Assembly (NCBI GenBank): GCA_963843455.1
Contig: CAWJKE010000007.1
Coordinates: 102,501-166,500, forward strand
Direction: 5' to 3'
DNA: 64,000 nucleotides
From: an uncultured Actinomycetota bacterium
GTDB lineage: Bacteria; Actinomycetota; Thermoleophilia; RBG-16-64-13
Below are positions 8,718 through 56,028 of this stretch, one piece after another. A model generated the notes under the pieces. That model had not been told where the DNA came from. It did no database searches and was given only the letters and a program-made list of their open reading frames with translations. The position numbers and the translations under genes are program-made. The number at the start of each line of letters is the position of its first letter. Position 1 is the first letter of the stretch.

Positions 8718-9908
8718 TTGATGACAAAGCTGAACAGCGTCCAGCGCGCGCGCGGAGGTCGGAGCGGCCTGCAGAAGTTCATCCTGGCCGCGTCCGCGGT
8801 CCTCGTCCTGGGCGGTGCGGTGGCCGTCACGGGCTGCGGCGGCTCCCAGGGCACCGCGAAGACGACGACCACTCACAAACCCGCTACCACCACCTCGACC
8901 ACTCTCAGCCTGGAACAGATACTCGCCCGTCGGGATCAGTCCTACCGGCCCCTCAAGGGTCTGTATCTGACCGCCAGCTCCGCCGCCAACCCCACGGTGC
9001 TGGCCAACCTCATCAAGATCGCCGACGATACCGAGATCAACGCGTTCGTGGTGGACGTCAAGGACAACTCGGGCTACGTGGCGTACGACAGCGGCTCGCC
9101 TCTCGCCAAGAGCCTGGGCCTTATCAAGCCCCGGATCAAGGACATCGACGGCCTCATCGCCACGCTCAAAGAGCACGACATCACGCCCATCGCCCGTGTC
9201 GTCTGCTTCCAGGACTCGGTGCTGGCGAAGAAGCGGCCCGATCTGGCCGTCAAGAGCAAGAAGACCGGCAATAACTTCCTGGACAACAAGAAGGCCATGT
9301 ACACCAACCCCTATAAAAAGCAGGTGTGGGAGTACTTGGTGCAGGTGGCCGAGGACGCCGCCAAGCACGGTTTTCGCGAGATCCAGTTCGACTACGTGCG
9401 CTTCCCCAGTGGGGGGGTGAAGGATGCCGTCTATCCGGGGGCAGGTACCATGCCCAAAGAAGATGCCATAGCGGGGTTTCTCGCCTACGCCCGGCCGCGG
9501 CTGCAGAAGCTGGGGGTGTGGGTGTCGGCCGACGTGTTTGGGGTGATCCTGCAGGTTAAGGATGACGCCGCCATCGGGCAGAGGCTCGAGAAAATGGCGT
9601 CCAACGTAGACATCGTCTGTCCCATGATCTACCCGTCGCACTATGCGAAGGGGAACTACGGGTTCACCAACCCCAATGCCCATCCCTACGAGGTCATGAG
9701 TGGTGCCCTGGAGCAGATGAATACCAGGATGGTGGGCACGGGCGCGAAGGGCCGGCCGTGGCTCCAGGACTTCACCTTAGGAAAGCCGGCCTACGGCGTT
9801 GCCGAGGTGAAGGCTCAGATCAAGGCGGTCAAGGATCAGGGCCTCGACGAATGGATCCTCTGGAACGCCAGCAACAAGTACACGGTGGGGGCGCTCGGGC
9901 CCGAGTAG
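8718..9908 (+). CDS. lipoprotein, putative glycoside-hydrolase-like (TIM-barrel, DUF4015/GHL-type)
   Basis: Lipobox VTGCGG, Thr-rich linker, conserved EIQFDYVRFP and CPMIYPSHY motifs typical of putative glycosyl-hydrolase-like lipoproteins. Confidence 0.5.
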   Translation: MMTKLNSVQRARGGRSGLQKFILAASAVLVLGGAVAVTGCGGSQGTAKTTTTHKPATTTSTTLSLEQILARRDQSYRPLKGLYLTASSAANPTVLANLIKIADDTEINAFVVDVKDNSGYVAYDSGSPLAKSLGLIKPRIKDIDGLIATLKEHDITPIARVVCFQDSVLAKKRPDLAVKSKKTGNNFLDNKKAMYTNPYKKQVWEYLVQVAEDAAKHGFREIQFDYVRFPSGGVKDAVYPGAGTMPKEDAIAGFLAYARPRLQKLGVWVSADVFGVILQVKDDAAIGQRLEKMASNVDIVCPMIYPSHYAKGNYGFTNPNAHPYEVMSGALEQMNTRMVGTGAKGRPWLQDFTLGKPAYGVAEVKAQIKAVKDQGLDEWILWNASNKYTVGALGPE

Positions 9909-10007
9909 CGGGACGCTCGCGCGGCCGCGGGGCTCTCAAACGTGTGAGTGACGATCACCGGGAGTCGACGCACTTCTTCAGTTGCAGGACCGCGAGAAGA
10001 AGAGAGG

Positions 10008-16685: not shown

Positions 16686-17246
16686 CTATTTCTCGGGTAT
16701 CGAGTTTGTTCTTGCGACGCTCGTGTCGCTCCCGGTCACCAGATCGACGCTTATGCCGTTGGACACGCCAAGGTACTTGTCGATTAGAGCGGTTATCTGG
16801 GCCTTGGTCGTCTGAAGGGCGGCCTGTGCCTGGCTGACCGCGACCTGCTCCTGGGCGGCGATAGCGCGCAGTTGGTCGAACGTCGTCTTGTCGTCGGCGG
16901 TCATCTTCTCACCGATCAGGTCGAGGATCGCATTCTCCTTGGCCTGCTGCAGTTGCAGGTCGGCGGCGGCCGCGGCCGCCACGGCCGCCGCGGGCGTCGT
17001 GTCGACGGTCGGGAGTTGGAGGGCGGGAAGGGAGGTCGTGGACGAGGAGGAGGTGACGGCCGCCTGAGTGACGGCTGCTTGGGTGAGCGCGGTCGTGGAT
17101 GAGGCCGTAGCCGGGGTGAGAGAGTAGTTGTCGCCCGTGCCCGTGCTCGCGAGCGCGAAGGAGCCGATGCATAGGGTCAAGACAATGGCCAACACGGGGA
17201 CCACCCATTTGTTCTGGAAGAACCGCCCCCCGAAGAATCGCTTCAT
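16686..17246 (-). CDS. secreted/membrane-anchored helical protein, paralogue of the N-terminal domain of the adjacent M23 peptidase (alternative start at 17417 gives a 57-aa duplicated N-terminus)
   Basis: MKRFFGGRFFQNKWVVPVLAIVLTLCIGSFALA signal anchor; AGGGGG RBS; helical region ILDLIGEKMTADDKTTFDQLRAIAAQEQVAVSQAQ aligns with IVLKLVREKMSPADREALDKLVAAAATQQLDVGLSQS of the M23 protein. Two in-frame ATGs (17246, 17417) created by a 171-bp tandem duplication. Confidence 0.5.
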   Translation of the reverse strand: MKRFFGGRFFQNKWVVPVLAIVLTLCIGSFALASTGTGDNYSLTPATASSTTALTQAAVTQAAVTSSSSTTSLPALQLPTVDTTPAAAVAAAAAADLQLQQAKENAILDLIGEKMTADDKTTFDQLRAIAAQEQVAVSQAQAALQTTKAQITALIDKYLGVSNGISVDLVTGSDTSVARTNSIPEK

Positions 17247-17480
17247 TTCTGCCCCCTGGCTATCCCGGATTGCTCGTGGTGGTCGTCGACCCGGTGCCGG
17301 TGGTCGTGGGCGGATGGACCAGAGCGCGAAGGAGGCGATGCAGAGGGTCAAGACAATGGCCGACACGGGGACCACCCATTTGTTCTGGAAGAACCGCCCT
17401 CCGAAGAATCGCTTCATTTCTGCCCCCTGGCTATCCCGGATTGCTCGTGGCGGTCGTCGACCCGGTGCCGATGGTCGTCG
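17153..17480. repeat. tandem direct duplication, 2 x ~171 bp
   Basis: Unit gcgcgaaggagccgatgcatagggtcaagacaatggcc...gattgctcgtgg repeated head-to-tail with a few substitutions (period 171 = 57 codons). Each copy contains a pseudo/real stop of the M23 gene, the RBS, ATG and signal-anchor coding start of the downstream gene. Confidence 0.85.
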
Positions 17481-18681
17481 GGGGACCGACGAGCGTCGTG
17501 TCCGTCGTCGATGTCTCCGGCGCGGTCGTGGTCGACGTGGTCGACGTGGTGCCTGTCGACTCCGTAGTCGTGGTGTCGGTCGTGGACGGAGTCGTCGAAG
17601 ACGTATCCGTCGTGATCGTCGTCGTGGTTGTCGTGGTCGTAGGGGTCGTCGTGGTGGTTGTAGTGGTTGTAGTCGTTGTAGTGGTTGTGGTGGTCGCTGT
17701 CGTGGTGGTAGTGGTTGTGGTCGAGGTGCTCCCGACCACATCGGCTATGGTTGCCGCTCCCCGCAGAACCAGGTATGGATCGATGGCGATCCCGCCCCCT
17801 GGGTGGATCTCGAAGTGCAGATGGACGGCGCTGGCGCGCGCATCCCCGGAATTCCCGGCGTAGCCGACCACCTGTCCGGCCGCCACACGCACGCCGGTGC
17901 GCATCCCTTCGCCGAGAGATTCCAGATGGGCGTAGTAGTAGGAGTTGCCGTCGGCGCCCCGCAGCCAGACCGTCCGGCCTCCCAGACCGATGTCCAGGGG
18001 GTTCGCCCGGCCGATCACGCCGTCGACGACCGCGACGAGGGGGGTATTGCGGGCGCAGAAGATATCGGCACCCCGATGGGGATGGTAGCCGCCGGCGTAC
18101 CGGGGCGCGCCGAAGCTATCGCCGAAGCTGTTGCGGCCGGCCACGGGGAAGATCCAGTCGAGACCCACCTGGAAGATGGCGGCTGGCACCTCCGGATCCG
18201 GATATAACCCGACGGCTCCCTGTGCCCCGGTCGCCCCTTCGGGGGGCTCCAGCAGGTACGCGTCCGCGAGGTCCATCAGTTCCTCCTGGGCGGTGTCCAC
18301 GATGCTCTGGCTCAGCCCGACATCCAGTTGCTGTGTCGCGGCCGCGGCCACAAGCTTGTCGAGAGCCTCGCGGTCTGCCGGGCTCATCTTCTCTCTGACG
18401 AGCTTCAGTACGATCTCATCCTGGACAGCGGCCCCCTGCGATGCGGGCGCGGTGTCGGTGAAGCCGAGCAACGCCGAACTTTCGGTCACTTGGGGAAAGA
18501 GGTCCAGGGGTCCGAGCACGCCCTCGGTCTCGAGGATGCCCGAGGTCTGCGGAGGGGGAGCGGGCGCGTCGCCCCGCATCTCGGTCGTAGCGGCCAGTGC
18601 CGCCGGCGTACCGCCCATGACAAGGACGGCGGCTGCCGCGGGTATGACCAACATCGTCCAACGAGGTAGTCTTGGGCGCAT
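17431..18681 (-). CDS. M23 family metallopeptidase (LytM-like) with N-terminal helical domain and C-terminal poly-Thr tail
   Basis: GYHPHRGADIF ... NSGDARASAVHLHFEIH (HxxxD / HxH LytM motifs); signal peptide; C-terminal ~90 aa almost pure Thr/Ser. Confidence 0.85.
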   Translation of the reverse strand: MRPRLPRWTMLVIPAAAAVLVMGGTPAALAATTEMRGDAPAPPPQTSGILETEGVLGPLDLFPQVTESSALLGFTDTAPASQGAAVQDEIVLKLVREKMSPADREALDKLVAAAATQQLDVGLSQSIVDTAQEELMDLADAYLLEPPEGATGAQGAVGLYPDPEVPAAIFQVGLDWIFPVAGRNSFGDSFGAPRYAGGYHPHRGADIFCARNTPLVAVVDGVIGRANPLDIGLGGRTVWLRGADGNSYYYAHLESLGEGMRTGVRVAAGQVVGYAGNSGDARASAVHLHFEIHPGGGIAIDPYLVLRGAATIADVVGSTSTTTTTTTTATTTTTTTTTTTTTTTTTPTTTTTTTTITTDTSSTTPSTTDTTTTESTGTTSTTSTTTAPETSTTDTTLVGPPTTIGTGSTTATSNPG

Positions 18682-18812
18682 CCGACTCCGACCACCAAGG
18701 TTTGCACGTACAAATAGCTACACCGACATGGATCGGTGCACAACGGTTACCCTGGGGCGCTTCAGGCCAAACCCGGCACAGGGGGTTTTGGCCTGGGTAA
18801 AGTCCTCGCGAG

Positions 18813-19076
18813 ATGGAAAGGACCTGGCTCCATTCCGATGTCAGCAGGCATCAGACGCTCGCGGGCGCGTGGGTCACGCCTGAGCCGAGCCGCTGCGTAC
18901 AGTGCGGCATCTGCTCGTTCCACTGCCCGATGGACATCGACGTGCGCCGTTCGGTGTGGCTGGGCGAGCCGGTCGCGGACAGGCACTGTCTCACGTGCGG
19001 CCAGTGTGTGGAGCGCTGCCCCCGAGGTCTGTTGCGTTTCGAAGCGATCACCGGTGACGGCCAGGAGGCTAGATGA
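18813..19076 (+). CDS. 2x[4Fe-4S] ferredoxin
   Basis: Two CxxCxxCxxxCP motifs (CVQCGICSFHCP, CLTCGQCVERCP); ATGA overlap with downstream oxidoreductase. Confidence 0.7.
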   Translation: MERTWLHSDVSRHQTLAGAWVTPEPSRCVQCGICSFHCPMDIDVRRSVWLGEPVADRHCLTCGQCVERCPRGLLRFEAITGDGQEAR

Positions 19077-20395
19077 GCCGCCGCTACGTGGTGGTGGGGA
19101 GCGGCCCGGCAGCCTTCCAGGCCTGCGAGTCCATCAGGACCGTCGACACAACCGGCGACATCACCGTCATCGGTCGGGAGCCCGAGGCCTACTACTCTCG
19201 GCCCGGCCTCGCGTACTACCTGGCGGACGAGGTCAGCGAGGACGGGCTTTTCCCCTTGCGCGGGCAGGCATTGGCGCGGGTGGGGGCAGCATTCGTCTTG
19301 GGCACCGCTGAGGAAGTGCGCCCAGCGCACCATCAGGTGGCCCTCGACGACGGACAGGTCTTCGACTACGACCGCCTGCTTCTCGCTACGGGCTCCACGG
19401 CCATTATTCCGGCTGTGGAGGGCGTGGAACTGGATGGTGTGGTCACGCTGGACGACATGGGGGATGCCCGGGCCATCATCGCGCGCAGCCGGCAGGCTAA
19501 GGCCGCGGTCGTGGTCGGGGGCGGCATCACGGCTCTGGAGATCGTCGAAGGGTTGCTCGCCCGCAAGGTCAAGGTCCACTACCTGATGCGCAAAGAGCGC
19601 TACTGGAGCAACGTGCTCGCGGAGGCTGAGTCGCGGCTGGTCGAAGATCGTCTGCGCCGGTGCGGGGTGGCCATCCACTACTTCAGCGAGCTCGGGCGGA
19701 TCCTGGGACGCAAAGGACGGGTGGCCGGCGTGGAGACCACTGAGGGAGAGGTCATCCCCTGCCAGATGGTCGGCTTGGCCATCGGGGTGACGCCGCGGAA
19801 GCGACTGGCCGAAGCAGCCGGACTGGTGTGCGGGCGCGGAGTGATAGTGGACGAGCACCTTCGGTCGAGCGATCCCGACATCTTCGCTGCCGGCGACCTC
19901 GCGGAGACCCGGGACGCGGCCACCGGCCGCTCCACCATGGAGGTGTTGTGGAGTTCGGCCGTCGATAAGGGCCGGGTGGCGGGACTGAACATGGCAGCGA
20001 CGACGGCCCCGGAGCACGTCTACAGCAAGGCGTTGCCGCTCAATGTCACGCGGCTGGCCGGCTACCGGGTGACGATCATGGGCCGCGTGGGAAGCGGCGA
20101 GGACGCCGACCTCAAAGGCATTGCCCGAGGCGACAGCGAGACCTGGCGCCGAATGGGCGAGGCGACCACGGTGACGTCCGATTCGAAAGACACACACCTC
20201 CGCCTGGTCCTCGAGGACGACACGATTGGAGGGGCTGTGGTGATGGGCGACCAAGAGGCGTCGTTCCCTCTGCAGGGTCTCACCGCTTTCCGTGTCCCTC
20301 TGGGGGCCGCAAGGGACCGGTTACTGGAGCCGCGCGCCGATCTGGTCCCGCTGCTCGATCAGACGTGGCAGGCGTACCGGAGGCGCCATGCTTAG
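19073..20395 (+). CDS. FAD-dependent pyridine nucleotide-disulfide oxidoreductase (ferredoxin/rubredoxin reductase-like)
   Basis: Two Rossmann dinucleotide motifs (VVVGSGPAAF, AVVVGGGITALE), AAGDLAE FAD motif; class-I FAD/NAD(P)H oxidoreductase architecture. Confidence 0.8.
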   Translation: MSRRYVVVGSGPAAFQACESIRTVDTTGDITVIGREPEAYYSRPGLAYYLADEVSEDGLFPLRGQALARVGAAFVLGTAEEVRPAHHQVALDDGQVFDYDRLLLATGSTAIIPAVEGVELDGVVTLDDMGDARAIIARSRQAKAAVVVGGGITALEIVEGLLARKVKVHYLMRKERYWSNVLAEAESRLVEDRLRRCGVAIHYFSELGRILGRKGRVAGVETTEGEVIPCQMVGLAIGVTPRKRLAEAAGLVCGRGVIVDEHLRSSDPDIFAAGDLAETRDAATGRSTMEVLWSSAVDKGRVAGLNMAATTAPEHVYSKALPLNVTRLAGYRVTIMGRVGSGEDADLKGIARGDSETWRRMGEATTVTSDSKDTHLRLVLEDDTIGGAVVMGDQEASFPLQGLTAFRVPLGAARDRLLEPRADLVPLLDQTWQAYRRRHA

Positions 20396-20984
20396 CAGGA
20401 ACAAGGAGCTGTGGTTCGCGCTAGCCGCCATCGTTGTGATCACCGCGGGCTATTCCGCTTTCACCGCGGCCGCCAGCCGGCTGCCTGCTGCCTCCCATCT
20501 GCTCGGCCACGGCATCGGCATTCTGGGATTCGTGCTGATGCTCATGACCGAGACCCTCTACACGCTGAGGAAGCGCGCGAAGAGCGCGCGCTGGGGGAGG
20601 GTCTCGAAGTGGCTGAAGTTTCACATCTTCACGGGGCTGGTTGGTCCTTACATGGTGCTTCTTCATCCCGCGATGAGGTTCCGGGGTCTCGCCGCGGTGC
20701 TGAGTTTGCTGACGGTCGTCGTGGTTGCCAGCGGCGTTGTCGGCCGTTACATCTACACGCGCGTCCCGCGGACCGTCGAGATCCCGGTGGTGGGGCAGGC
20801 CGTCACGCCACCAGGCGTCGCTCCGGGGCCGGCGAGCGCGGTCCTGCCGTTGGCGCGCGTGACGCCCGCCAGGAAAGGCCTCGCCACCTGGCGCGCTGTG
20901 CACGTGCCGCTCACGTTTGTGCTCTTCATCGTCGCCTTCGTCCACATCGTCGGAGCCGTGTATTATGCGACGCTTCTCCGCTGA
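20388..20984 (+). CDS. 5-TM membrane protein with conserved His, putative di-heme b-type cytochrome (DUF4405-like)
   Basis: Five TM helices carrying HLLGH, FHIF, LLHP, AVHV, FVHIV; sits between the oxidoreductase and the multiheme cytochrome. Start at internal ATG 20388 (8-nt overlap with upstream gene). Confidence 0.4.
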   Translation: MLSRNKELWFALAAIVVITAGYSAFTAAASRLPAASHLLGHGIGILGFVLMLMTETLYTLRKRAKSARWGRVSKWLKFHIFTGLVGPYMVLLHPAMRFRGLAAVLSLLTVVVVASGVVGRYIYTRVPRTVEIPVVGQAVTPPGVAPGPASAVLPLARVTPARKGLATWRAVHVPLTFVLFIVAFVHIVGAVYYATLLR

Positions 20985-21038
20985 GTCCGGCCGGGCAGCG
21001 CCCGGGCCCACCGGGCCTGAGTCCCACCGGGAGGACCT

Positions 21039-22274
21039 ATGAGCCGCCGCCGGTTGGTGACTCCCCTCGGCGTAGCGCTGCTGATTCTTGCGGTGGCCGG
21101 GCTCATCGGGTGGGGCCTTACCCGGGGATCATCGATGTTCAGCCCCGGCGCGCTGAACGCGCAGGCCAAGACGCTGACCCTCGGGGGGGTCAGTTCTCAC
21201 GCGGCCCTCGCCGACGACTGCAGCGCCTGCCACGCCATCCCATTCTCGGCGGAGACGATGGCGAGCCGCTGCCTTGGCTGCCACGAGGACGTACAGCAAG
21301 AGATCTCCTCCCGTGCCGGCCTGCATGGCCGACTCGTCGCCCGCGGCTGGAGCGGGGCGTCGTGCGTAGCCTGCCACCCTGAGCATCAGGGAGCGACGGG
21401 CGCTCTAACCGCACTCGACAAGTCTTTTCCGCACGATATCGTGGACTTCTCCCTGCGGGCTCATAGAGGGGAGACAAGTTGCCAAGACTGCCACCCCGCG
21501 GATTTCAGGACCTTCGACATGACGACCTGCGCCGCCTGTCACGAGCAGATGGACCAGGCCTTCATGGCCCAGCACACCGCAGCCTTTGGGACCAAGTGCG
21601 TGCCCTGTCACGACGGGGTCGATCGGTACGGCGAGAACTTCGATCACAACAAGCTGGCGTTCCCACTCACCGGAGGCCACGCGGGGGTCGAGTGCGGTTC
21701 TTGTCACGCCAACGCGACCTCGGTGGAAGCGCTGCAGAACACTTCCCAGGATTGCTACTCCTGCCACGCCAAGGACGACGAGCACGCCGGTGAGTTCGGC
21801 ACTGACTGCGGGAGTTGCCATACCGCCAATGGCTGGTCTGAGGTCACGTTCGACCACTCGAAGTCGTCGTTCCCGCTGGTAGGGGGGCATGCCGGTATCG
21901 CCTGCGACAAGTGCCACGTAGGTGGCAAGTTCTCCGGGACGACGGCCGACTGCGTGTCGTGCCACGCCGAGCCCGCTTTCCACGCGGGGGCCTTTGGCTC
22001 CCAGAGCACGCAGTGCGCTTCTTGTCACACTGCTACAGCCTGGACGCCGGCCAAGTCGGACTTCGACCATAGCGTCTTCCCGCTCGATCATGGTAGCGAG
22101 GAGCAGGTACCCACGTGCAAGACCTGCCATCCCACCACGGTCACCGAATACACCTGTCTGGGGTGTCACGCCCATTCGGCAGACAACGTCGTGGCTGAGC
22201 ACGAGGGCACCCCGCTAGACCAGTTGCTGAAGGATTGCGTCCGTTGCCATCCGAGGGGTCGCAACGCCGACTAG
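21039..22274 (+). CDS. membrane-anchored multiheme cytochrome c, 15 CxxCH, c7/c3-type triheme repeats
   Basis: 15 CxxCH motifs in 411 aa; repeated F-D-H-x-K-x-x-F-P-L-x-G-G-H-A-G-x-x-C-x-x-C-H modules as in poly-c7 cytochromes; N-terminal signal anchor. Confidence 0.9.
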   Translation: MSRRRLVTPLGVALLILAVAGLIGWGLTRGSSMFSPGALNAQAKTLTLGGVSSHAALADDCSACHAIPFSAETMASRCLGCHEDVQQEISSRAGLHGRLVARGWSGASCVACHPEHQGATGALTALDKSFPHDIVDFSLRAHRGETSCQDCHPADFRTFDMTTCAACHEQMDQAFMAQHTAAFGTKCVPCHDGVDRYGENFDHNKLAFPLTGGHAGVECGSCHANATSVEALQNTSQDCYSCHAKDDEHAGEFGTDCGSCHTANGWSEVTFDHSKSSFPLVGGHAGIACDKCHVGGKFSGTTADCVSCHAEPAFHAGAFGSQSTQCASCHTATAWTPAKSDFDHSVFPLDHGSEEQVPTCKTCHPTTVTEYTCLGCHAHSADNVVAEHEGTPLDQLLKDCVRCHPRGRNAD

Positions 22275-22494
22275 CCGCGGCCGATAGCAGCCGCGCTGGA
22301 TGCATGTTTAGAGTCGCAGCTTTGGTGGTAGCGAAGAACCACTTGCGCAGCAGTGAACAATCGGTTTGTCCTGGTGTGGAAGGATTCTACCTGGGTGCCG
22401 AGAGTGAAGGGAGGGCTCAAGCGTCGCGGGGTGTAGCGTTCATCATCGAAGGGGTGCTGATTCGTTCTTGTAGTGTCTCGGATGGGTTGAAGGG

Positions 22495-24086
22495 GTGACA
22501 AGTGTGAAGATGCTGATCTCTCTCGGTAAGCCACTCGCTCGCCGGAGGTGGCCCTTGGCCATCCTGGCGATCGTGGCGGTCGGAGCGCTCGCCGGAGGCC
22601 TGCTGTTCGTGTTCGCCGCGTCGCCGGCCATCGCCACCGGCGCCCGCCGGGACCACGGTGGTATACAACATGTTCGCCACCGACGGCTACGTCGCGCTTC
22701 CGGACGGCGGGGCCATCTACAACTACGGCTTCGTAGGCGGTCGCGCGGGCAAGCCCCTGACCTACGCCAAGAGCGTGACTCCGTCGGACTCCGGACGGTG
22801 GCAGACGGCGCGTACGGTGGCTTCACCTACAATGGCAACGGTACTTTGGCGGGCGGCGCTCCGACGCCGACCCCGGGGATCGCCGTGGGTGACGAGAAGG
22901 AGCTCGCCGGGAACGCGCAGTGGCCGGCCCCGATCGTGTACGCAACCGTGGGTGACGTGGTGCAGATCCGGTTCAAGAACCTTGGTGTTGTTGCCAACCC
23001 GAGGCGCCGAACGACCCGCACAGCATCCACCTGCACGGGCTCGACGTGAACGCGGCCAATGACGGCGTCCCCGAGACGTCCGTCGGCGCTGTGCCGGCAA
23101 ACGCCATTGACGCCCAAGGCCACAGTATCCCTGGTGCGGGCAACGTCATCGTCTACATGTTCTCGCCGAAGAACGCGGGGACGTACATGTATCACTGCCA
23201 TCAGGAAGCCGACATCCACGTGCAGATGGGCATGTACGGCGCTCTGGTGATCTACAACCAGGGTGACGCCGCCGCCGCCACCGGCCCCGGTGCGGGCAAG
23301 GGCGGCCAGCTCTTCGGCTGGACCTACGACAAGGACTACGTGCAGTTGCTCACGGAGATAGACACCCGCCAGCACGGCGACGAGGATGGCCAGCCCGGCA
23401 TCTTCAAGGGAGACTACCAGGGTGGCTGGAACCCGGTCAACTACCATCCCCAGTACTGGCAGATCAACGGTCTGTCGTTCCCCAACACCATCCACGTGGG
23501 ACTGCCGGGCGCCAACGGATGGGCCGACTGGATAGCCGCGCACCCGGGATACGACCCGTTCATCACTGGGAGCGTGAGCAAGACCCACACGAACCCTGCG
23601 ATCCCCAAAGGGGACAAGGTCCTCCTGCGGATGATCAACATGGGTTTCGAGACCCAGCCCATCCACATGCACGGCTTCCACGCGAAGGTCATCGGCTCCG
23701 ACCAACGCGGCTGGACCTGGGCGAACAAAGCTCTGGTCACCCCGTGGGGCCAGGGCGACGAGAAGCAGACCCTCACCATCGGATCCGGTGAGACGTACGA
23801 GTGGCTGATCAACATGGGTCAGCAGAGCGTGCAGTCCACCTACCCGGCGGGAACCCAGACGCGCTACGATGCGAACGGCTTGCCGGTAGCCAACACCGAC
23901 ACCTCGAAGACGCCGATAACGAACCCCGATGGTACCGACTACATCGCGGGTCCGCCTGTCTTTGGAGCTAACGGTCTGCCGACGCCAGGGCAGTTGTTCC
24001 CCATGCACAACCACGACGACTACAAAGCGACCAACAACGGTGTGTACCCAGGTGGGATGTTCACGATGATCGAGACGCTCCCGTAG
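22495..24086 (+). pseudogene. multicopper oxidase (signal peptide + cupredoxin domains), reading frame broken by three frameshifts
   Basis: MCO sequence is continuous only when read in frame A (22495-~22640), then B (~22640-~22790), then A (~22790-~23000), then C (to 24086). It contains HSIHLHGL, YMYHCHQEADIHVQMGMYG (T1 Cu HCH...H...M) and IHMHGFH copper motifs. Confidence 0.7.
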
Positions 24087-24169
24087 TGTCTCGATCCCGG
24101 GCGGTAGCTGCCTCCGGCGGGGGCAGCTACCGCCGTTTCAGCGTCATCGACCAACACTCCTGAGAGGGG

Positions 24170-25048
24170 GTGGGTGCAGTGGTTTCAAGTGCCGTGAGGC
24201 CTCTGATCGTCGTCGCCGGGCTTGTTCTCGCGTTTCTCGGACTCGCCGGTTGCGGCGCTCAGGTGACCACAGCCCCCGAGTCCGACAAGGTGCTGGCCGT
24301 CCAGTCGCAGATGCCATTCCAGATCATGATCCCCAGTTATCTCCCCAAGGAGTTCGACCGCAAGATCATGGAGATAACCGTGGACCAGGCCGGTCCGGGC
24401 GGCGAACCGATGGTGCAGCTCGCTTATCGCACCAAGAAGGGGGCTACGGTGACCCTCCAGGAGTGGGTCCCCGTCAATCCCGACCAGGAGATCCTGAACG
24501 CCTCGCGCCCCATCCAGACGAAGTGGGGCCGGGGCTGGAACCTTGACCAGGGAGATCAACTCGCGGCCATCTGGGCGGACGTGGGGCCCACACGGGTGTC
24601 GCTGTACACAGCCGACGTGGGCACCGTGTCGAACGAGCGGCTTCTCGCGATCGCTGAGACCCTCGGGCCGGCCTCGAACAAGGTGGTGTTCTCCTTCGAC
24701 GCGGCGCCCAAACAGATCGAGGAAATGGCCGCTCCTCCCGCGTACGTGGTGCCGACGAACGCCGTGGGGGTGCAGGAGGTGACCCTGGTGGTGACGCCGG
24801 GGGGCTACTCGCCCCTCCGCTTCTCGGTGAAGGCGGGCGTTCCGGTCAAACTCACCTTCAGGCAATTGGGCGAGGTGGGGTGCGGCAGCGAGCTTATCTT
24901 CCCCGCGGACCCGAACAACCCGGCATCGCTCCAACTGGTCAAGCCCACCGACGAGCAGACGATCGAGTTCACGCCCACCCAGGTGGGGGTTTTCGAGTTC
25001 CACTGCTCGCATCAGATGTATCGCGGTCTGATGACGGTGCGGGAGTGA
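24170..25048 (+). CDS. lipoprotein with C-terminal cupredoxin-like domain
   Basis: Lipobox LAGCGA; C-terminal EFTPTQVGVFEFHCSHQMYRGLMTV resembles the Cys-His-Met copper site of cupredoxin_1-type domains. Confidence 0.55.
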   Translation: MGAVVSSAVRPLIVVAGLVLAFLGLAGCGAQVTTAPESDKVLAVQSQMPFQIMIPSYLPKEFDRKIMEITVDQAGPGGEPMVQLAYRTKKGATVTLQEWVPVNPDQEILNASRPIQTKWGRGWNLDQGDQLAAIWADVGPTRVSLYTADVGTVSNERLLAIAETLGPASNKVVFSFDAAPKQIEEMAAPPAYVVPTNAVGVQEVTLVVTPGGYSPLRFSVKAGVPVKLTFRQLGEVGCGSELIFPADPNNPASLQLVKPTDEQTIEFTPTQVGVFEFHCSHQMYRGLMTVRE

Positions 25049-25650
25049 TCCTGAACGCCGTCGGGACCTTTCTCCACCCCCGCCGGGCGCTCCTCGCGCC
25101 GGCCGCTCTCGCCGCGACCACGTTCCTCATGGCGGCCGTGCTCTTTCTCGCGGGTTGGTCTCTGACCGGCTGCGGGGGGGAGGCGGGCGCCGCGGTTTCC
25201 ACGTCGGGATCTGAGGCCGAGAACCAGGCGCCCATCGGCACCTACACGGATTCGCCGGCGCCCTCGGGCTCGCTCCCGGGCGCTTCCAACGCAGACGGGG
25301 CGACCGCCTCGCAGACGAGCGACCCCGAGGAGGAGGCGGATCTCAAGAAGGTCGAACTGCTCGGGGTTGCGCTCGCCGCCGACGGGGCGTACGTTACGGT
25401 GCAGTTCAAAGCGCCGCCACGTCTCGCCAAGACCTGGCAGACGGGAGAGGTGTGGGTGACCGACGAGTCCACTCAGACCGTGTACGACCACATCCCCGTT
25501 ATGCCTGTGCTGGGGGCGCTGTTCGGCCGGCCTGTCGAAGACGGCCAGATCGGCTACGTCATGTTCAGCAACCTGCCGCCGCTGGCGGCCGGGGCCCAGG
25601 TGACCGTCGTGCTCGGGGGTTTCACCCAGGAACATGTCAGGGTGCAGTAG
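25045..25650 (+). CDS. lipoprotein (hypothetical)
   Basis: In-frame GTG at 25045 overlapping the upstream stop; signal HPRRALLAPAALAATTFLMAAVLFLAGWSLTGCGG with lipobox. No recognised domain. Confidence 0.4.
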   Translation: MILNAVGTFLHPRRALLAPAALAATTFLMAAVLFLAGWSLTGCGGEAGAAVSTSGSEAENQAPIGTYTDSPAPSGSLPGASNADGATASQTSDPEEEADLKKVELLGVALAADGAYVTVQFKAPPRLAKTWQTGEVWVTDESTQTVYDHIPVMPVLGALFGRPVEDGQIGYVMFSNLPPLAAGAQVTVVLGGFTQEHVRVQ

Positions 25651-25690
25651 AAAGTAGTGGTCCAGTAGAAACGACCGGGAGGGAGTCCGC

Positions 25691-26215
25691 ATGAACGTCG
25701 CGCTGAAAGTCATCGCAGTGGTGATCATAGTCCTCGCGCTGGTCATTGGCATCGTGCCGCAGTTCACCAACTGCGAGTACGCCAAGAGTATGGCGACTCC
25801 GGCGAGCACGGCGACTACCATGGCGACCCCGACGACCATGATGGGATCGCAATCGACCACGCCTACAACGATGGCTAAGGCTGCGACGACGACCAAACCC
25901 CGCTGCTTCTACACGGCCCGCGGGGAAATCGCGGTTGCCGTTCCGCTTCTCATCATCGGTATCTTCATGCTCATCAGTTCCCGCAAGGAGACATGGCGGG
26001 CCCTTTCGGTTCTGGGGATCGTCGAAGGATTGTTCGTTATCCTGCTGCCTACCGTGCTCATTGGCATCTGCATGAAGAGCACCATGACCTGCCGACAGGA
26101 GATGGAGCCGACACTCTATGCCGCCGGCGGGCTGGTGATCGTCGCCAGTCTGGCCGCCTTGATCATGAACGAGCTTCGCGGACGGGCGGCTCGCAACGCG
26201 GAAGTCACAGACTAG
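25691..26215 (+). CDS. DUF4418 family membrane protein
   Basis: Four TM helices and conserved Cys pattern (PQFTNC, KPRC, LIGICMKSTMTC) characteristic of DUF4418, which typically precedes FtsX-type ABC permeases. Confidence 0.55.
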   Translation: MNVALKVIAVVIIVLALVIGIVPQFTNCEYAKSMATPASTATTMATPTTMMGSQSTTPTTMAKAATTTKPRCFYTARGEIAVAVPLLIIGIFMLISSRKETWRALSVLGIVEGLFVILLPTVLIGICMKSTMTCRQEMEPTLYAAGGLVIVASLAALIMNELRGRAARNAEVTD

Positions 26216-26236
26216 CCGGGGCCGAGGAGCATCTGG

Positions 26237-27436
26237 GTGAAGTTCAAGCCCCTCCTGCTTCTCGCGCTACGCGGGATATCGGGCAGCGCCTTCCGGAGTT
26301 GGCTGATCGGCTTCTGCGCGCTTGTGATCGCGGGGTTCGCGCTCTCCACTGTCTTGGTGATGCAGGGGGCCCGCAGCAGCCTCGACCTGACGTTGACCCG
26401 TCTGGGAGCCGACATACTTGTGGTCCCGCAGGGCGCGGAAGAGCAGACCCAGGGGGCGTTGCTCATGGGACAGGCGGTCAAGGAATTCATGCCCATGAGC
26501 AAGCTGGCGGAGATAGCGGCCGTCCCGGGCGTGGAGAAGGCCTCCCCGCAGCTCTACCTCGAGTCGCTCGCCGATGCGCCCTGCTGTTCAGTGGCCAACA
26601 TGTTCATGGTCGCCTACGACCCCGACACCGATTTCACGCTCGGCCCCTGGCTCACGCAGAAGATCGGGCGGGATCTGACGCTGGGTGAGGCCGTCGGGGG
26701 TAACTACGTGTTCGTCCCCGAAGGCGAAGAGAATATCGAGCTCTACGGCTACATCCTCTCCCTGGAAAGCAACCTCGAGCCGACCGGCACCAACCTGGAC
26801 AACAGCATCTTCATCACCTTCGAGACGGCGCGCGAAATGGCGCGCCTGTCTCAGCACAACGCCGTGACGCCTCTCGTCGTGCCCGATGATTCCACTTCGT
26901 CCGTGCTGGTCAAGGTGGCGCCCGGCTACGACCCCAAGGCCGTGGCGGTGGACATCTTCAACCGGGTGCAAGGCGTTACTCCCGTCCAAAGTCCCGAGAT
27001 GTTCGGCACGTTCCGCAACCAGGTATCCGGGGTGCTGCGGGCGATGCTCCTGGTACTCGGACTGGCTCTCGGCCTGTCGCTGCTGCTCATCGGCTTCGTG
27101 TTCTCCATCGCCGTCAACGAGCGACGCCGCCATATAGGGGTGCTCCGGGCGCTGGGGGCTACCCGCGGGGCTGTGATCGTCTCGCTCCTGACCGAAGCCA
27201 CGATCCTCGCCACGGCGGGGGCGGTCGTCGGCGTGATACTTGCCGCGGTGGGGATCTACCTGTTCCGCGACCTGCTGGGGACTTCTCTGGGCTTCTTCGT
27301 CTTTCCCTCGCCAGGGGTGGTCGTCGGGATGGTCTTCGCCGGGCTGGTGCTGGCCATCGCCTGCGTGGCCGTTGCCGCCGCTGTGCCTGCGCTGCGGATC
27401 AGTCGCCAGGAACCCGCCATCTCCATGAGAGAGTGA
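26237..27436 (+). CDS. ABC transporter permease, FtsX-like (MacB-type)
   Basis: N-terminal TM, large extracytoplasmic domain, C-terminal FtsX 3-TM bundle (...NERRRHIGVLRALGATRGAVIVSLLTEA...). Confidence 0.8.
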   Translation: MKFKPLLLLALRGISGSAFRSWLIGFCALVIAGFALSTVLVMQGARSSLDLTLTRLGADILVVPQGAEEQTQGALLMGQAVKEFMPMSKLAEIAAVPGVEKASPQLYLESLADAPCCSVANMFMVAYDPDTDFTLGPWLTQKIGRDLTLGEAVGGNYVFVPEGEENIELYGYILSLESNLEPTGTNLDNSIFITFETAREMARLSQHNAVTPLVVPDDSTSSVLVKVAPGYDPKAVAVDIFNRVQGVTPVQSPEMFGTFRNQVSGVLRAMLLVLGLALGLSLLLIGFVFSIAVNERRRHIGVLRALGATRGAVIVSLLTEATILATAGAVVGVILAAVGIYLFRDLLGTSLGFFVFPSPGVVVGMVFAGLVLAIACVAVAAAVPALRISRQEPAISMRE

Positions 27437-27479
27437 GGCGGTCGGGCATGAGGCTGGCACGAGCATCGAGACGCGCGAC

Positions 27480-28178
27480 GTGATCTCACTCAAGAACATC
27501 AACAAGGTCTACACCCTCCGCGACGGGCCCACCATTGCGGCGCTGCACGACGTCGACCTGGAGATTGGCCATGGCGAGTTCCTGGTCATCATCGGCCGAT
27601 CGGGCTCGGGCAAGACGACCCTTCTAAACGTTGCGGCCGGGCTCACCAAACCTACGTCGGGCACTGTCCTGCTCGACGGCACCGACGTCTGGGGCCTGTC
27701 GGACAAGCAGCAATCCCGATTACGCAACCGCAAGCTGGGATTCGTCTTCCAGTTCCCGAGTCTCATCCCGACCTTGTCCGCCTTGGAGAACGTCATGCTT
27801 CCTGTATCGCTCGGGGACCGTAACGGGAACAACGGGCACGGGCCCCCCACCGATGGCGGCCGGGCAAAGGCCGTGGAACTGCTGGAGACAGTCGGGCTGG
27901 GAGACCGCCTGGCTTCGTTCCCCCGGCAGATGTCCGCGGGCCAGCAGCAGCGGGTGGTCATAGCCCGGGCACTCATGAACGAGCCGGAGCTACTGTTCGC
28001 CGACGAGCCCAGCAGCGACCTGGACGAACAGACCGAGACAGAGATCATGACCTTGTTTGCAGACATCCACGCGCGCACCGGGGTGTCGATCATGATGGTG
28101 ACGCACGCCAGCCAGTTGATCGAGTACGGCACGCGGGCCGTGGAGATGTCGGCAGGCAGGCTGCGGGAACTCACCTAG
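27480..28178 (+). CDS. ABC transporter ATP-binding protein (MacB/LolD-type)
   Basis: Walker A GRSGSGKTT, Q-loop, signature MSAGQQQR, Walker B LLFADEPSSDLD; GTG start. Confidence 0.9.
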   Translation: MISLKNINKVYTLRDGPTIAALHDVDLEIGHGEFLVIIGRSGSGKTTLLNVAAGLTKPTSGTVLLDGTDVWGLSDKQQSRLRNRKLGFVFQFPSLIPTLSALENVMLPVSLGDRNGNNGHGPPTDGGRAKAVELLETVGLGDRLASFPRQMSAGQQQRVVIARALMNEPELLFADEPSSDLDEQTETEIMTLFADIHARTGVSIMMVTHASQLIEYGTRAVEMSAGRLRELT

Positions 28179-28503
28179 GGGGCGCCTGGGCGGCGAGCGC
28201 CGCGCGCGTCTTCCGAGCATGGGGCGCCGAGCGCCGCGTGCGTCAAGCCACCGGTTCACTCCTTCAGACACGCCACCGCTCCGGACCCACCAAGTCCCTC
28301 GCGAGCACGATGGCCGCTCGGCGTTCGGCCGTGGGCCGCGTGATAGGGCGTAGACGTGAGTGCTCACTCCAATCGGCAGCAAGCGCGATACATGCGATTA
28401 TGCAGGCTATATAGCAGTGTTTTGCAGGAAAAACAGCGGCACGATGACCTCACGATGTATAGCAACTAATGGGGAAGTGCGCTATAAGAAGTAACGGCTA
28501 CCA

Positions 28504-28532
28504 TTGACAAGAGGTCCTGTCGTCACTATCCT
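28504..28532 (+). promoter_or_regulatory. sigma-70-like promoter for the liv operon
   Basis: TTGACA (28504-28509), 17-nt spacer, TATCCT (28527-28532), in the only AT-richer intergenic stretch before the substrate-binding protein gene. Confidence 0.35.
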
Positions 28533-28604
28533 GAGGCCATCGCCTGGCCACAGGCGGTCCCGTCGTAATGGGACGGCGGGTAACGTTCAAGAAGGGGGGA
28601 TCTT

Positions 28605-54906: not shown

Positions 54907-54921
54907 CGAGGGGCCGGCGCC

Positions 54922-56028
54922 GTGGCGCTGAACTACCCGTTCCCCGGCCCGCCGGCGCCGGGCGAATCGCTGGAGATACTCCCGGGTATCCACTGGGTGC
55001 GGCTGCCACTGCCGTTGAAGCTCGACCACGTCAACGTCTGGGTCCTGGAGGACGGCGACGGGCTGACCGTGGTCGACACCGGAGTGGGGGATGAAAGGAC
55101 CGGCGCGCTGCTGCGGCAGGTGCGTGCCACGCTACCCCGGCGGCCGTTCACCCGCATCCTGGTGACCCACCATCACCCCGACCATTGCGGCCGCGCCGAC
55201 CGGCTGAGCGAGGAGAACGGCGCCGAGGTCCTGATGAGCGCTCAGGCTCACGAGGCGGGGCTGGTGCTGCGGCGCCTGGAGAAGGGCACCGATGCCAGAT
55301 CGACCGCGGCTCGGCTGGCCGGACACGGGCTGTCGGCGGACGCACAGCGGTTCCTGGTCGAGAATGAGGCATCGTTTCAGATCCTCAAGCCGGGGCTGCC
55401 CCCCGATTTCACGCCTCTCGCCGAGGGCGACACCGTCTCGACGGGCGCTTATTCCTGGCAGGTGATCTTCGGCCAGGGCCACGCGCCCGACCACGTGTGC
55501 CTGTATTGCGCGGACCCGCCGGCGGCCGGCGGGGCGCCCGTGGGCGCGGGAGGGGCCGCGGCTGGGGATCTGGGCGACGCTGCCCGGGCCAAGCGGCCCG
55601 GGATCCTGATCTCCGGTGACATGGTCCTGCCGCATATCTCCACTCACGTCGGATCCCCGGCCGCGTGGCTGCCGGGCAATCCGGTGGCTTTGTTCCAGGA
55701 ATCGGTGCGCCGTCTGGCCGAACTTCCGCCCGACACGCTCGTCCTGCCGTCTCACGGGGTTCCGTTCGTGGGGCTGCGGGAGCGGGTGGCCGAGTTGGAG
55801 CTGCATCACGAGGAGCGTTGTAGAACGATCGCGGCGGCCCTCGGTGGACCCCGGACCGCGGCGGAACTTCTGAGGGTCGTCTTCCAGCGGGAATTGGATC
55901 CCCTGCAACTGATGCTCGCCATGAACGAGGCCGTAGCCCACCTTGAGTACATGACCGACCGGGGTGAGCTGGAGCGGGTTGCGGGGGAGGACGGCATCAC
56001 GCGCTACGTGCGAAGGGACGCCGAATGA
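54922..56028 (+). CDS. MBL-fold metallo-hydrolase
   Basis: ILVTHHHPDHCG (HxHxDH), GDTV...GH downstream His/Asp ligands. Confidence 0.8.
   Translation: MALNYPFPGPPAPGESLEILPGIHWVRLPLPLKLDHVNVWVLEDGDGLTVVDTGVGDERTGALLRQVRATLPRRPFTRILVTHHHPDHCGRADRLSEENGAEVLMSAQAHEAGLVLRRLEKGTDARSTAARLAGHGLSADAQRFLVENEASFQILKPGLPPDFTPLAEGDTVSTGAYSWQVIFGQGHAPDHVCLYCADPPAAGGAPVGAGGAAAGDLGDAARAKRPGILISGDMVLPHISTHVGSPAAWLPGNPVALFQESVRRLAELPPDTLVLPSHGVPFVGLRERVAELELHHEERCRTIAAALGGPRTAAELLRVVFQRELDPLQLMLAMNEAVAHLEYMTDRGELERVAGEDGITRYVRRDAE

Follow-up and report, generated by a model that had tools for sequence, protein, structure and literature searches.

At positions 18813-22274 of a 64,000-nucleotide stretch of DNA from an uncultured Actinomycetota bacterium (assembly GCA_963843455.1, contig CAWJKE010000007.1; the whole stretch is called the window here) lies a cassette of four genes that has been kept together, with order and strand unchanged, in every related locus whose two flanks can be read (66/66). 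It encodes a ferredoxin, a flavoprotein of the kind that binds flavin adenine dinucleotide (FAD) and NAD(P)H, a five-helix membrane protein with conserved histidine pairs and a cytochrome with fifteen CxxCH motifs. We propose, at a probability of roughly 0.45, that the four products form one membrane-bound electron-export complex, in which electrons would pass from NAD(P)H through FAD, iron-sulfur clusters, haems b and c haems to an extracellular acceptor. The multicopper oxidase (MCO) gene that follows belongs to a second, separate gene unit.

A conserved four-gene cassette

The region is made of two gene units, of which the cassette is the first (unit A) and positions 22495-28178 the second (unit B). 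The genes of unit A, with protein lengths in amino acids (aa), are:

18813-19076, plus strand: gene 1, cytoplasmic 2x[4Fe-4S] ferredoxin, 87 aa (Pfam Fer4_9, 5e-10)
19073-20395, plus strand: gene 2, cytoplasmic FAD/NAD(P)H flavoprotein of the ferredoxin-reductase/AorC/PadH type, 440 aa (Pyr_redox_2, 1.5e-45)
20388-20984, plus strand: gene 3, five-helix membrane protein predicted to hold two haems b, 198 aa
21039-22274, plus strand: gene 4, 15-CxxCH cytochrome with an N-terminal signal anchor and its haem domain outside, 411 aa (Cytochrome_C7, 7.8e-18)

The stop of the ferredoxin gene overlaps the start of the flavoprotein gene as ATGA, the flavoprotein and membrane-protein genes overlap by 8 nucleotides (nt), both overlaps being seen again in relatives, and 54 nt separate the membrane-protein gene from that of the cytochrome.

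An alignment of 32 homologues of the membrane protein served as the basis of a pattern scan with one genome per species, in which 591 of the 599 matches encode a relative, and the best 80 of these 591 species loci were compared by tblastn with all proteins of the window. Beyond the 66 fully readable loci, the ferredoxin and the flavoprotein are present wherever at least 1.8 kb of upstream sequence is available (71/71), and a member of the cytochrome family comes right after the membrane-protein gene wherever there is at least 1.3 kb downstream (75/75). Clustering of every open reading frame (ORF) in the loci yielded no fifth conserved neighbour; the next most frequent are a PHP-domain protein, an MFS transporter, a D-Ala-D-Ala ligase and ATP synthase subunits. 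The cassette has carriers in at least 591 species genomes, and its hosts are mostly Anaerolineales and other Chloroflexota. Actinomycetota account for seven of the 80 loci (four Thermoleophilia, one Gaiellales, one Coriobacteriia and one unclassified metagenome-assembled genome, MAG), and the closest relative, L003, comes from an unclassified Actinomycetota MAG (72% identity).

An earlier interpretation of this DNA, made without database searches (the sequence-only reading), had joined these four genes and the oxidase into a five-gene module of a high-GC monoderm host. It is right for the four genes and wrong for the oxidase. Its ferredoxin, flavoprotein, His-rich five-helix protein and 15-CxxCH cytochrome are all borne out, by Pfam profile searches and motif counts or, for the membrane protein, by five predicted helices and conserved His, the ATGA and 8-nt overlaps are present as it described them, and the 66 loci confirm that the four belong together; the host it imagined fits a closest relative among the Actinomycetota. 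The comparison of gene neighbourhoods that it had suggested separates the two parts of its module, since the four genes are syntenic whereas the oxidase, as a fifth, is absent by tblastn from the 80 loci. It had also named what would speak against it, namely a loss of the His pairs among homologues of the membrane protein or an unrelated nitrite or hydroxylamine role of the cytochrome: the His pairs are kept in the 32 homologues, and the cytochrome bears no signature of such a role. Its view that this is not a described system is in line with our searches of open-access papers and preprints, in which no description of the four-gene cassette was found.

The ferredoxin and the flavoprotein

The ferredoxin belongs to the bacterial 2x[4Fe-4S] type, with two CxxCxxCxxxCP motifs and a Fer4_9 score of 39.7 bits against a Pfam cut-off of 27 (Fer4_10, 3.4e-9). 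Across 71 orthologues the core residues of the cluster motifs are kept at 90% or more and the first Cys of the first motif at 60-90%; neither a signal peptide nor a transmembrane segment is visible in the sequence. The protein weakly resembles the PadF/PorD delta subunits, at scores far under the family cut-offs (30 vs 150).

With 156.3 bits against Pyr_redox_2 (cut-off 26.1), the flavoprotein falls into the class with two dinucleotide-binding domains. Its GxGxxxxxA, YSRPGLAY and GGGxxALE motifs are conserved in 68 orthologues, as is a VHYxxRxxRYW stretch that comes after the second Rossmann strand and whose conserved arginines stand where one would expect an acidic residue, a hint at NADPH that is not decisive. 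The YSRPGLAY motif has no Cys at what we take to be the position of the active Cys in the CoA-disulfide reductase/NADH oxidase branch. The best solved relative, aligned over the full length at 2.4e-40, is chain E of 8c0z, an aldehyde oxidoreductase complex in which this chain, the FAD subunit, docks on the iron-sulfur subunit and connects it with NAD(H). Among NCBIfam models the best is PadH, the epsilon subunit of phenylglyoxylate dehydrogenase (NF045765, 6e-52), at 176.9 bits against an equivalog cut-off of 475. Because the scores lie so far under the equivalog cut-offs, the flavoprotein and the ferredoxin are best regarded as relatives, and not orthologues, of PadH and PadF/PorD.

The membrane protein

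Five helices are predicted for the membrane protein (AlphaFold model, pLDDT 70). In the 32 homologues His41, His79, His93 and His172 are invariant and His186 is kept at 90% or more; His79 and His93 lie on helix 3, His172 and His186 on helix 5, and the spacing is 14 residues on each helix. Such a spacing of two His pairs is what holds the two stacked haems b of the bc1 cytochrome b and of ferric-reductase domains of the NOX type. Of the loops, those predicted to lie in the cytoplasm carry 15 lysines and arginines and the outer ones 4, and by the positive-inside rule this bias puts the N-terminus inside, the C-terminus outside and one His pair close to each membrane face: His79/His172 is predicted to face the cytoplasm, and His93/His186, together with His41, the outside. 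The residues R61, K62, G119-R120-Y121, Y123, T124, P127 and R128, all on the cytoplasmic face, are invariant too.

Some distant members of the family (P0389, P0392, P0376, P0381 and P0400) are extended at the N-terminus by 60-130 aa in which CxxC motifs of the zinc-ribbon type occur in pairs, and two of them add a GYF-like segment before the five-helix domain. Such N-termini fit a cytoplasmic N-terminus of the membrane protein, and the extended members may form a subfamily that is differently regulated or partnered.

The arrangement of four conserved transmembrane His, with two predicted haems b towards opposite sides of the membrane, is that of the cytochrome b561/Ni_hydr_CYTB proteins. At E <= 1, 28 of the 32 homologues match Pfam Ni_hydr_CYTB (PF01292; best 3.4e-8) and some carry a precomputed PF01292 assignment; the window protein itself, at 24.0 bits, stays under the gathering cut-off of 30.1. 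The family sits at the edge of the two-haem cytochrome b561/Ni_hydr_CYTB superfamily. The His spacing also resembles that of the ferric-reductase family, from which membership does not follow: Ferric_reduct (PF01794) gives faint, non-significant matches in seven of the 32 (best E 0.064), and JGI annotates two of the homologues as 'predicted ferric reductase'. The membrane protein has no match in NCBIfam, and neither single-sequence nor profile searches found a solved chain in the PDB.

The protein is 50-60% identical across phyla. Among clusters at 50% identity its family has 3,707 representatives when the threshold is set at E <= 1e-3, of which 1,936 remain at E <= 1e-10. One family member of 548 aa, P0433, was considered as a fusion and rejected, as it looks like a frameshift read-through from the membrane gene into the cytochrome gene.

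The cytochrome

Exactly 15 CxxCH and no CxxCK motifs were counted in the cytochrome, and its scores place it in the c3/c7 family: 64.5 bits for Cytochrome_C7 (cut-off 24.8), which matches three stretches, 57.8 for Cytochrom_c3_2 (cut-off 25; 1.6e-15) and 55.3 for Cytochrom_CIII (cut-off 22.9; 9e-15). Fourteen of the 15 CxxCH and 12 further His are invariant in 26 homologues, as fits bis-His haems of the c3/c7 type. The C-terminal CxxCH (C400) is absent from some shorter homologues, and an MFSPGxLNAQ stretch directly after the anchor helix is conserved. Across 64 genomes the number of haem motifs ranges from 8 to 33, with modes at 15-20, and changes as repeats of some 70 aa, each with three haems, are gained or lost; a number so variable would be expected of a wire and not of a catalytic site.

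The AlphaFold model (pLDDT 67) has no match in the PDB by Foldseek, and the best PDB match by sequence, a cytochrome c3, is marginal (2e-4). Against HmcA the protein scores 21 bits, where the cut-off is 400. A role as a nitrite or hydroxylamine enzyme (NrfA, HAO/ONR) was considered and dropped, given the lack of CxxCK and of any match to such a Pfam or NCBIfam family.

Many Anaerolineales cytochromes begin with a conserved RLGC before the anchor helix, which the window cytochrome does not have. Extra multihaem genes occur in 17 loci, and in L001, from an Actinomycetota MAG that is the closest named relative, an additional 224-aa cytochrome gene (9291-9965) stands between the membrane gene and a 410-aa cytochrome.

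A separate, possibly copper-related unit with a disrupted oxidase

Unit B starts 220 nt after the cytochrome gene and contains:

22495-24086, plus strand: gene 1, multicopper oxidase, disrupted over three frames, only 23046-24086 being an open ORF
24170-25048, plus strand: cupredoxin-domain lipoprotein, 292 aa, lipobox-like LAGC (Pfam Cupredoxin_1, 1.1e-10)
25045-25650, plus strand: second putative lipoprotein, about 200 aa, lipobox-like LTGC motif, no Pfam match
25691-26215, plus strand: DUF4418 membrane protein (Pfam DUF4418, 6.3e-21)
26237-27436, plus strand: FtsX-type ABC permease (Pfam FtsX, 5.8e-17)
27480-28178, plus strand: LolD/MacB-like ABC ATPase (Pfam ABC_tran, 8e-35)

The start of the second lipoprotein gene is inferred from the orthologue in L085, the listed ORF being 24880-25650, and the ATPase matches NCBIfam LolD at 1.4e-62, under the LolD cut-off. 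A scan of 18400-28600 for promoters and terminators gave nothing informative, and no consensus site was seen in the 220 nt that precede the oxidase. The sequence-only reading had rightly seen a cupredoxin lipoprotein and an FtsX/ABC exporter downstream, and Pfam matches confirm both. However, its five genes are not all tightly spaced, as the 220-nt gap sets the oxidase apart; its end coordinate of 24086 falls inside the second cluster, which reaches 28178; and the secreted multicopper oxidase that it took for an intact gene has its conserved sequence spread over three reading frames.

This conserved sequence crosses from frame 1 to 2, back to 1 and then to 0, with shifts near 22640, 22790-22807 and 23006. 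The pieces were found by tblastn with an intact orthologue of 516 aa, P0243:

22501-22635, frame 1: oxidase piece 1, 78% identity to P0243
22649-22789, frame 2: oxidase piece 2, 94% identity to P0243
22807-23001, frame 1: oxidase piece 3, 82% identity to P0243
22992-24083, frame 3 in BLAST (frame 0 here): oxidase piece 4, 84% identity to P0243

No single frame runs from signal peptide to stop. In a nucleotide alignment with L085, the closest intact relative, the window shows single-base length differences near 22642, 22791, 22807 and 23006, and the source assembly has only a C-terminal ORF of 346 aa (23046-24086; P0241, 100% identical). The 1-nt deletion near 23006 is absent from L086 (ENA ERZ25039502 contig_70190), which over 9.6 kb is about 90.7% identical to window positions 18700-28207 but with 143 gap openings and nearly every gene called in fragments. 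L086 is apparently an indel-rich long-read assembly, a warning against taking frameshifts there for biology, and its shattered state indicates that indel errors are common in such data. Given this sister assembly, the lack of in-frame stops in the correct frames and the normal conservation of the amino-acid sequence, we lean somewhat towards an assembly error over a true pseudogene, although the other genes of the region are intact.

The reconstructed protein is a multicopper oxidase by its family scores (Cu-oxidase_2, 4e-21, 75.6 bits; Cu-oxidase_3, 1.6e-12, 48 bits) and by the copper-ligand motifs of the frame-corrected translation, HSIHLH, HCHQEADIHVQMGM, HMH and HNH; the four that mark the family are HxH, HxH, HxxHxH and HCHxxxHxxxxM. 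The N-terminal half bears the T1-site motifs and the C-terminal half the two HxH motifs, an order described for oxidases of two domains that carry their blue copper in the first. Intact orthologues have 516-525 aa and bear the JGI labels 'manganese oxidase' or 'FtsP/CotA-like'.

Comparison shows that unit B leads a life of its own. The oxidase always comes first, followed by the cupredoxin lipoprotein, a protein of some 170-220 aa, in some cases an LpqE-like one, and then DUF4418, FtsX and the ABC ATPase. The cluster occurs in L083 (9001-15248), L084 (9001-14755) and L085 (2833-8500), where the cupredoxin lipoprotein directly follows the oxidase, and where a 172-223-aa gene in the place of the second lipoprotein and DUF4418 keep their positions; in L083 and L084 it stands without the cytochrome cassette. 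It adjoins the cassette only in close relatives of the window (a JGI 3300075153 contig, L085 and L086). No relative of the oxidase was found by tblastn (E <= 1e-5) in any of the 80 species loci, and L001 and L002, at 62-65% cytochrome identity, have the cassette and no oxidase. Synteny thus largely rules out a five-gene module that includes the oxidase, and the route from NAD(P)H to O2, or the oxidation of Mn(II) or Fe(II), that the sequence-only reading had drawn through this enzyme is left without comparative support. Unit B itself looks copper-related. L083 adds an LpqE-like gene (PF04314) and, upstream, a second oxidase of 687 aa, and a cytochrome of 475 aa combining NapC/NirT and c7 parts lies downstream of the cluster in L084.

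Other features of the window

An M23 peptidase gene (17431-18681, minus strand) is divergent from the cassette and is followed by a gene of about 180 aa, an arrangement shared by the window and its Actinomycetota relatives L001, L002 and the JGI 3300075153 contig. The peptidase has an M23 Pfam match in L001 and L002, none being recorded for the JGI contig, and tblastn found no match to it in the Chloroflexota loci. Where two minus-strand genes meet, at 17151-17492, 171 nt are duplicated in tandem, the two copies being 94% identical. The duplication lies across the junction, repeating the signal-anchor start of the gene at 16686-17300 and overlapping the Thr-rich 3' end of the peptidase gene; it could be real or an assembly artefact. 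Farther away, at 52720-58117, a separate redox cluster encodes a 728-aa protein with NADH_4Fe-4S, Fer4_20 and Pyr_redox_2 domains, followed by genes for a metallo-beta-lactamase-fold protein, an Old-Yellow-Enzyme and a 3-hydroxyacyl-CoA dehydrogenase.

A possible path for electrons

The strict co-inheritance of the four genes, and their translational coupling, is the reason why we read them as a single electron path. The flavoprotein would oxidise NAD(P)H at its FAD on the cytoplasmic side and pass electrons one at a time to the ferredoxin with its two [4Fe-4S] clusters, which could also be charged directly by other ferredoxin-reducing enzymes. From there electrons would reach the inner haem b near the cytoplasmic face (His79/His172), cross the membrane to the outer haem b (His93/His186) and enter the 15-haem chain of the cytochrome, which is tethered by its helix and may be able to span into or through the wall of a single-membrane cell. 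The final acceptors would be insoluble or large, such as Fe(III) or Mn(IV) minerals, humics or partner cells.

NAD(P)H stands at about -320 mV, and exporting its electrons is both downhill and helped by the inside-negative membrane potential. Outward flow is favoured for these two reasons; electrons moving inward to NAD(P)+ would have to go against both, and no coupling subunit is part of the cassette. It has no proton pump either, for which reason we see in it a redox-balancing electron sink aided by the membrane potential, for example in fermentative Anaerolineae, and not an energy-conserving chain. All of this goes beyond what the sequences show, which are the identities of the genes, their cofactor motifs, a predicted topology and the conservation of all four together: from these we infer the formation of the complex, the binding of haem b, the donor, the direction of flow and the acceptor.

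Several points weigh against this proposal. Its core, the mutual binding of the four proteins and the haems b of the membrane protein, is deduced from sequence; the membrane protein is modelled at a middling pLDDT of 70 and matches other folds weakly; and among the best 150 of the 3,707 family representatives there is no fusion linking any two components. The superfamily consists mostly of quinone-reactive cytochromes b, so quinol could be the real donor or an additional partner. Finally, spending NAD(P)H without conserving energy needs an ecological rationale, and the fermentative lifestyle that would provide it is only suggested.

Relation to known electron-transfer systems

Close parallels are CbcBA and CbcL, with which a route of extracellular electron transfer begins at the membrane (bioRxiv 10.1101/2021.04.15.440034; PMC6295460). 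There, too, the membrane protein is of the b type with two haems and has as partner, separate or fused, a multihaem cytochrome c at the outer face of the cytoplasmic membrane, and a gene for a predicted dihaem cytochrome b beside one for a multihaem cytochrome c is what we find in the 75 loci with readable downstream sequence. The window protein also shares with HydC/FdnI-like cytochromes b the broad family Ni_hydr_CYTB. However, CbcB is described with four helices and three His, the fourth His coming from CbcA, and CbcL with six helices (bioRxiv 10.1101/2021.04.15.440034), unlike the five helices of the cassette protein with its two His pairs on helices 3 and 5. As described, moreover, CbcBA and CbcL are quinol oxidases without a cytoplasmic partner, which sets them apart from a cassette that brings its ferredoxin and NAD(P)H flavoprotein in all 71 loci. 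A survey of 2018 reported no CbcL homologue in Chloroflexi or Actinobacteria (PMC6295460). Unlike the hosts of CbcBA and CbcL, those of the cassette are single-membrane lineages, with neither a periplasmic relay nor an outer-membrane porin.

The Tmc and Hmc complexes of Desulfovibrio are likewise co-encoded sets of an outside multihaem cytochrome of the c3 family, a membrane cytochrome b and a cytoplasmic iron-sulfur protein, for which the quinone pool is probably not an obligatory route across the membrane, and the cassette has the same three kinds of component. The cytoplasmic subunit of Tmc/Hmc is HdrD-like, with CCG domains, their cytochrome b is of the NarI/HdrE type, and the accepted direction is inward, from periplasmic hydrogen to sulfate reduction. 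By contrast, the cytoplasmic part of the cassette is a 2x[4Fe-4S] ferredoxin with a flavoprotein, and on the side of the cytochrome the only sequence link is the sub-threshold HmcA match. The proposed function is also matched by NOX/FRE/SpNOX proteins and by MsrQ with Fre, in which NAD(P)H is oxidised at a flavin and two stacked haems b, held by His pairs about 13-14 residues apart, lead to an external acceptor. There the flavin part is FNR-like (FAD_binding_8/NAD_binding_6), whereas that of the cassette is a separate polypeptide of the Pyr_redox_2 class; the cassette also has a ferredoxin between flavin and haem, and as acceptor a multihaem cytochrome instead of O2, Fe(III) or MsrP.

On the cytoplasmic side, the pairing of an FAD subunit with a small poly-[4Fe-4S] partner that connects NAD(H) with an iron-sulfur chain recalls AorABC (8c0z) and PadEFGHI; those pairs serve soluble tungsten or thiamine enzymes, whereas the pair of the cassette has the genes of a multihaem cytochrome and a cytochrome b of the membrane beside its own. 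On the outer side, Geobacter GSU1996 is a polymeric cytochrome of the c7 type, and repeated trihaem c7/c3-like units forming a linear haem wire are common to cytochromes of the GSU1996 type, to the surface cytochromes of Thermincola and Ardenticatena, which are monoderm metal reducers, and to ours. Unlike these polymeric or surface cytochromes, that of the window is anchored by an N-terminal helix and co-encoded with its own electron-input module. Rnf-MmcA of Methanosarcina acetivorans and the flavin-based route of Listeria (Ndh2/EetAB/PplA) also work in cells that have no outer membrane, as dedicated routes by which the low-potential reducing power of cytoplasmic ferredoxin or NADH reaches a redox protein outside the cytoplasm (PMC6703419). 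Their parts are entirely different: Rnf is an ion-pumping complex, and Listeria uses a type-II NADH dehydrogenase, a special quinone and a lipoprotein that is flavinylated. Each thus involves an ion pump or a membrane-soluble carrier, and the cassette has neither. The cassette is accommodated by generic families only (Fer4, Pyr_redox_2, c3/c7 cytochromes) and stays under the cut-offs of PadH, Ferric_reduct and, for the window protein, Ni_hydr_CYTB. We would therefore class it as a putative transmembrane b/c-type electron conduit set apart by a built-in cytoplasmic input from NAD(P)H or ferredoxin.

Alternative explanations

The strongest rival to this direct wiring, unlikely as we consider it, couples the complex to quinones: the membrane protein and the cytochrome would act as a menaquinol:cytochrome c oxidoreductase like CbcBA/CbcL, and the ferredoxin-flavoprotein pair would reduce menaquinone on the same two-haem anchor, much as succinate:quinone oxidoreductases have their flavoprotein and Fe-S subunits seated on a dihaem cytochrome b. 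The cytochrome would then receive its electrons indirectly, through the quinone pool. Ni_hydr_CYTB, matched by 28 of the 32 homologues, is a quinone-reactive dihaem cytochrome b family; the Geobacter pairs of dihaem b and multihaem c cytochromes, CbcL and CbcBA, are described quinol oxidases (bioRxiv 10.1101/2021.04.15.440034; PMC6295460); and the invariant cytoplasmic-face residues fit a quinone site as readily as a docking site. Yet a plain quinol oxidase needs neither an NAD(P)H flavoprotein nor a ferredoxin, and both are there, translationally coupled, in 71/71 loci, while the window protein stays under the Pfam cut-off and its sequence profile matched no solved quinone-reactive cytochrome b. 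We give still less credit to a non-respiratory supply of reductant to the cell surface in the manner of ferric reductases or MsrQ, be it for reducing Fe(III) or Cu(II) before uptake, for repair or detoxification of oxidants or for reducing an extracytoplasmic enzyme. The layout of an NAD(P)H flavoprotein with a two-haem protein whose His pairs are 14 residues apart is like that of NOX/ferric-reductase exporters, two homologues carry the ferric-reductase label, and the cassette sits among housekeeping and not respiratory genes. But the Ferric_reduct matches in seven homologues are not significant, a wire of 8-33 haems far exceeds what soluble ions at the membrane surface would call for, and no uptake transporter or target enzyme is conserved beside the cassette.

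The two remaining explanations appear improbable to us, the second slightly more so. If the oxidase were part of a five-gene conduit, it would be either the terminal enzyme, giving NAD(P)H electrons to O2 outside, or a metal oxidase feeding the cytochrome. Its cluster does follow the cytochrome gene directly and in the same orientation, both in the window and in its three close relatives, and a different multihaem cytochrome lies downstream of the cluster in L084. This has to be set against the 80 cassette loci in which tblastn detects no oxidase, L001 and L002 among the nearer relatives without one, the cluster without cassette in L083 and L084, the 220-nt gap and the frameshifts. The flow could conversely be inward, as in Tmc/Hmc, the cytochrome taking electrons from Fe(II), reduced humics, cathodes or partner cells and delivering them to NAD(P)+ or ferredoxin. 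The cofactor chain is reversible in principle, and flavoproteins of the AorC/PadH type are physiological NAD+ reducers. Ardenticatena, of the Chloroflexota, performs cathodic as well as anodic electron transfer (PMC5808234). Inward flow would nevertheless run against the membrane potential and, for most environmental donors, uphill to NAD(P)+ or to a 2x[4Fe-4S] ferredoxin, with no energy-coupling subunit in the cassette.

Implications

If the electron-export complex exists as proposed, it would bear on a gap in what is known of single-membrane bacteria. Anaerolineae and related Chloroflexota are rich in multihaem cytochromes and belong to the most abundant bacteria of sediments, aquifers, digesters and activated sludge (bioRxiv 10.1101/2021.08.23.457424; PMC5808234), and surface multihaem cytochromes have been proposed as the conduit in the monoderm Ardenticatena maritima (PMC5808234). 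The cassette is a specific candidate for the missing transmembrane step to such surface cytochromes in single-membrane Chloroflexota and Actinomycetota. The membrane entry points known to the 2018 survey were CymA, the CbcL type and ImcH only (PMC6295460). Tentatively, and with the odds somewhat short of even, the cassette may represent a fourth and quinone-independent class beside CymA, CbcL/CbcBA and ImcH, a self-contained NAD(P)H (or ferredoxin):multihaem-cytochrome oxidoreductase; if indeed free of quinone, it would show that extracellular electron transfer can be built on a design principle not seen before.

It would let Chloroflexota and Actinomycetota that ferment and have a single membrane discharge their reducing equivalents straight onto minerals, humics or partner cells, and the cassette, with its at least 591 species genomes, could be used as a genomic marker of this capacity. 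For that purpose the membrane protein, because of its 50-60% identity across phyla, would be a better marker than the poorly conserved cytochromes. The cassette may also offer a compact set of parts for engineering electroactive cells.

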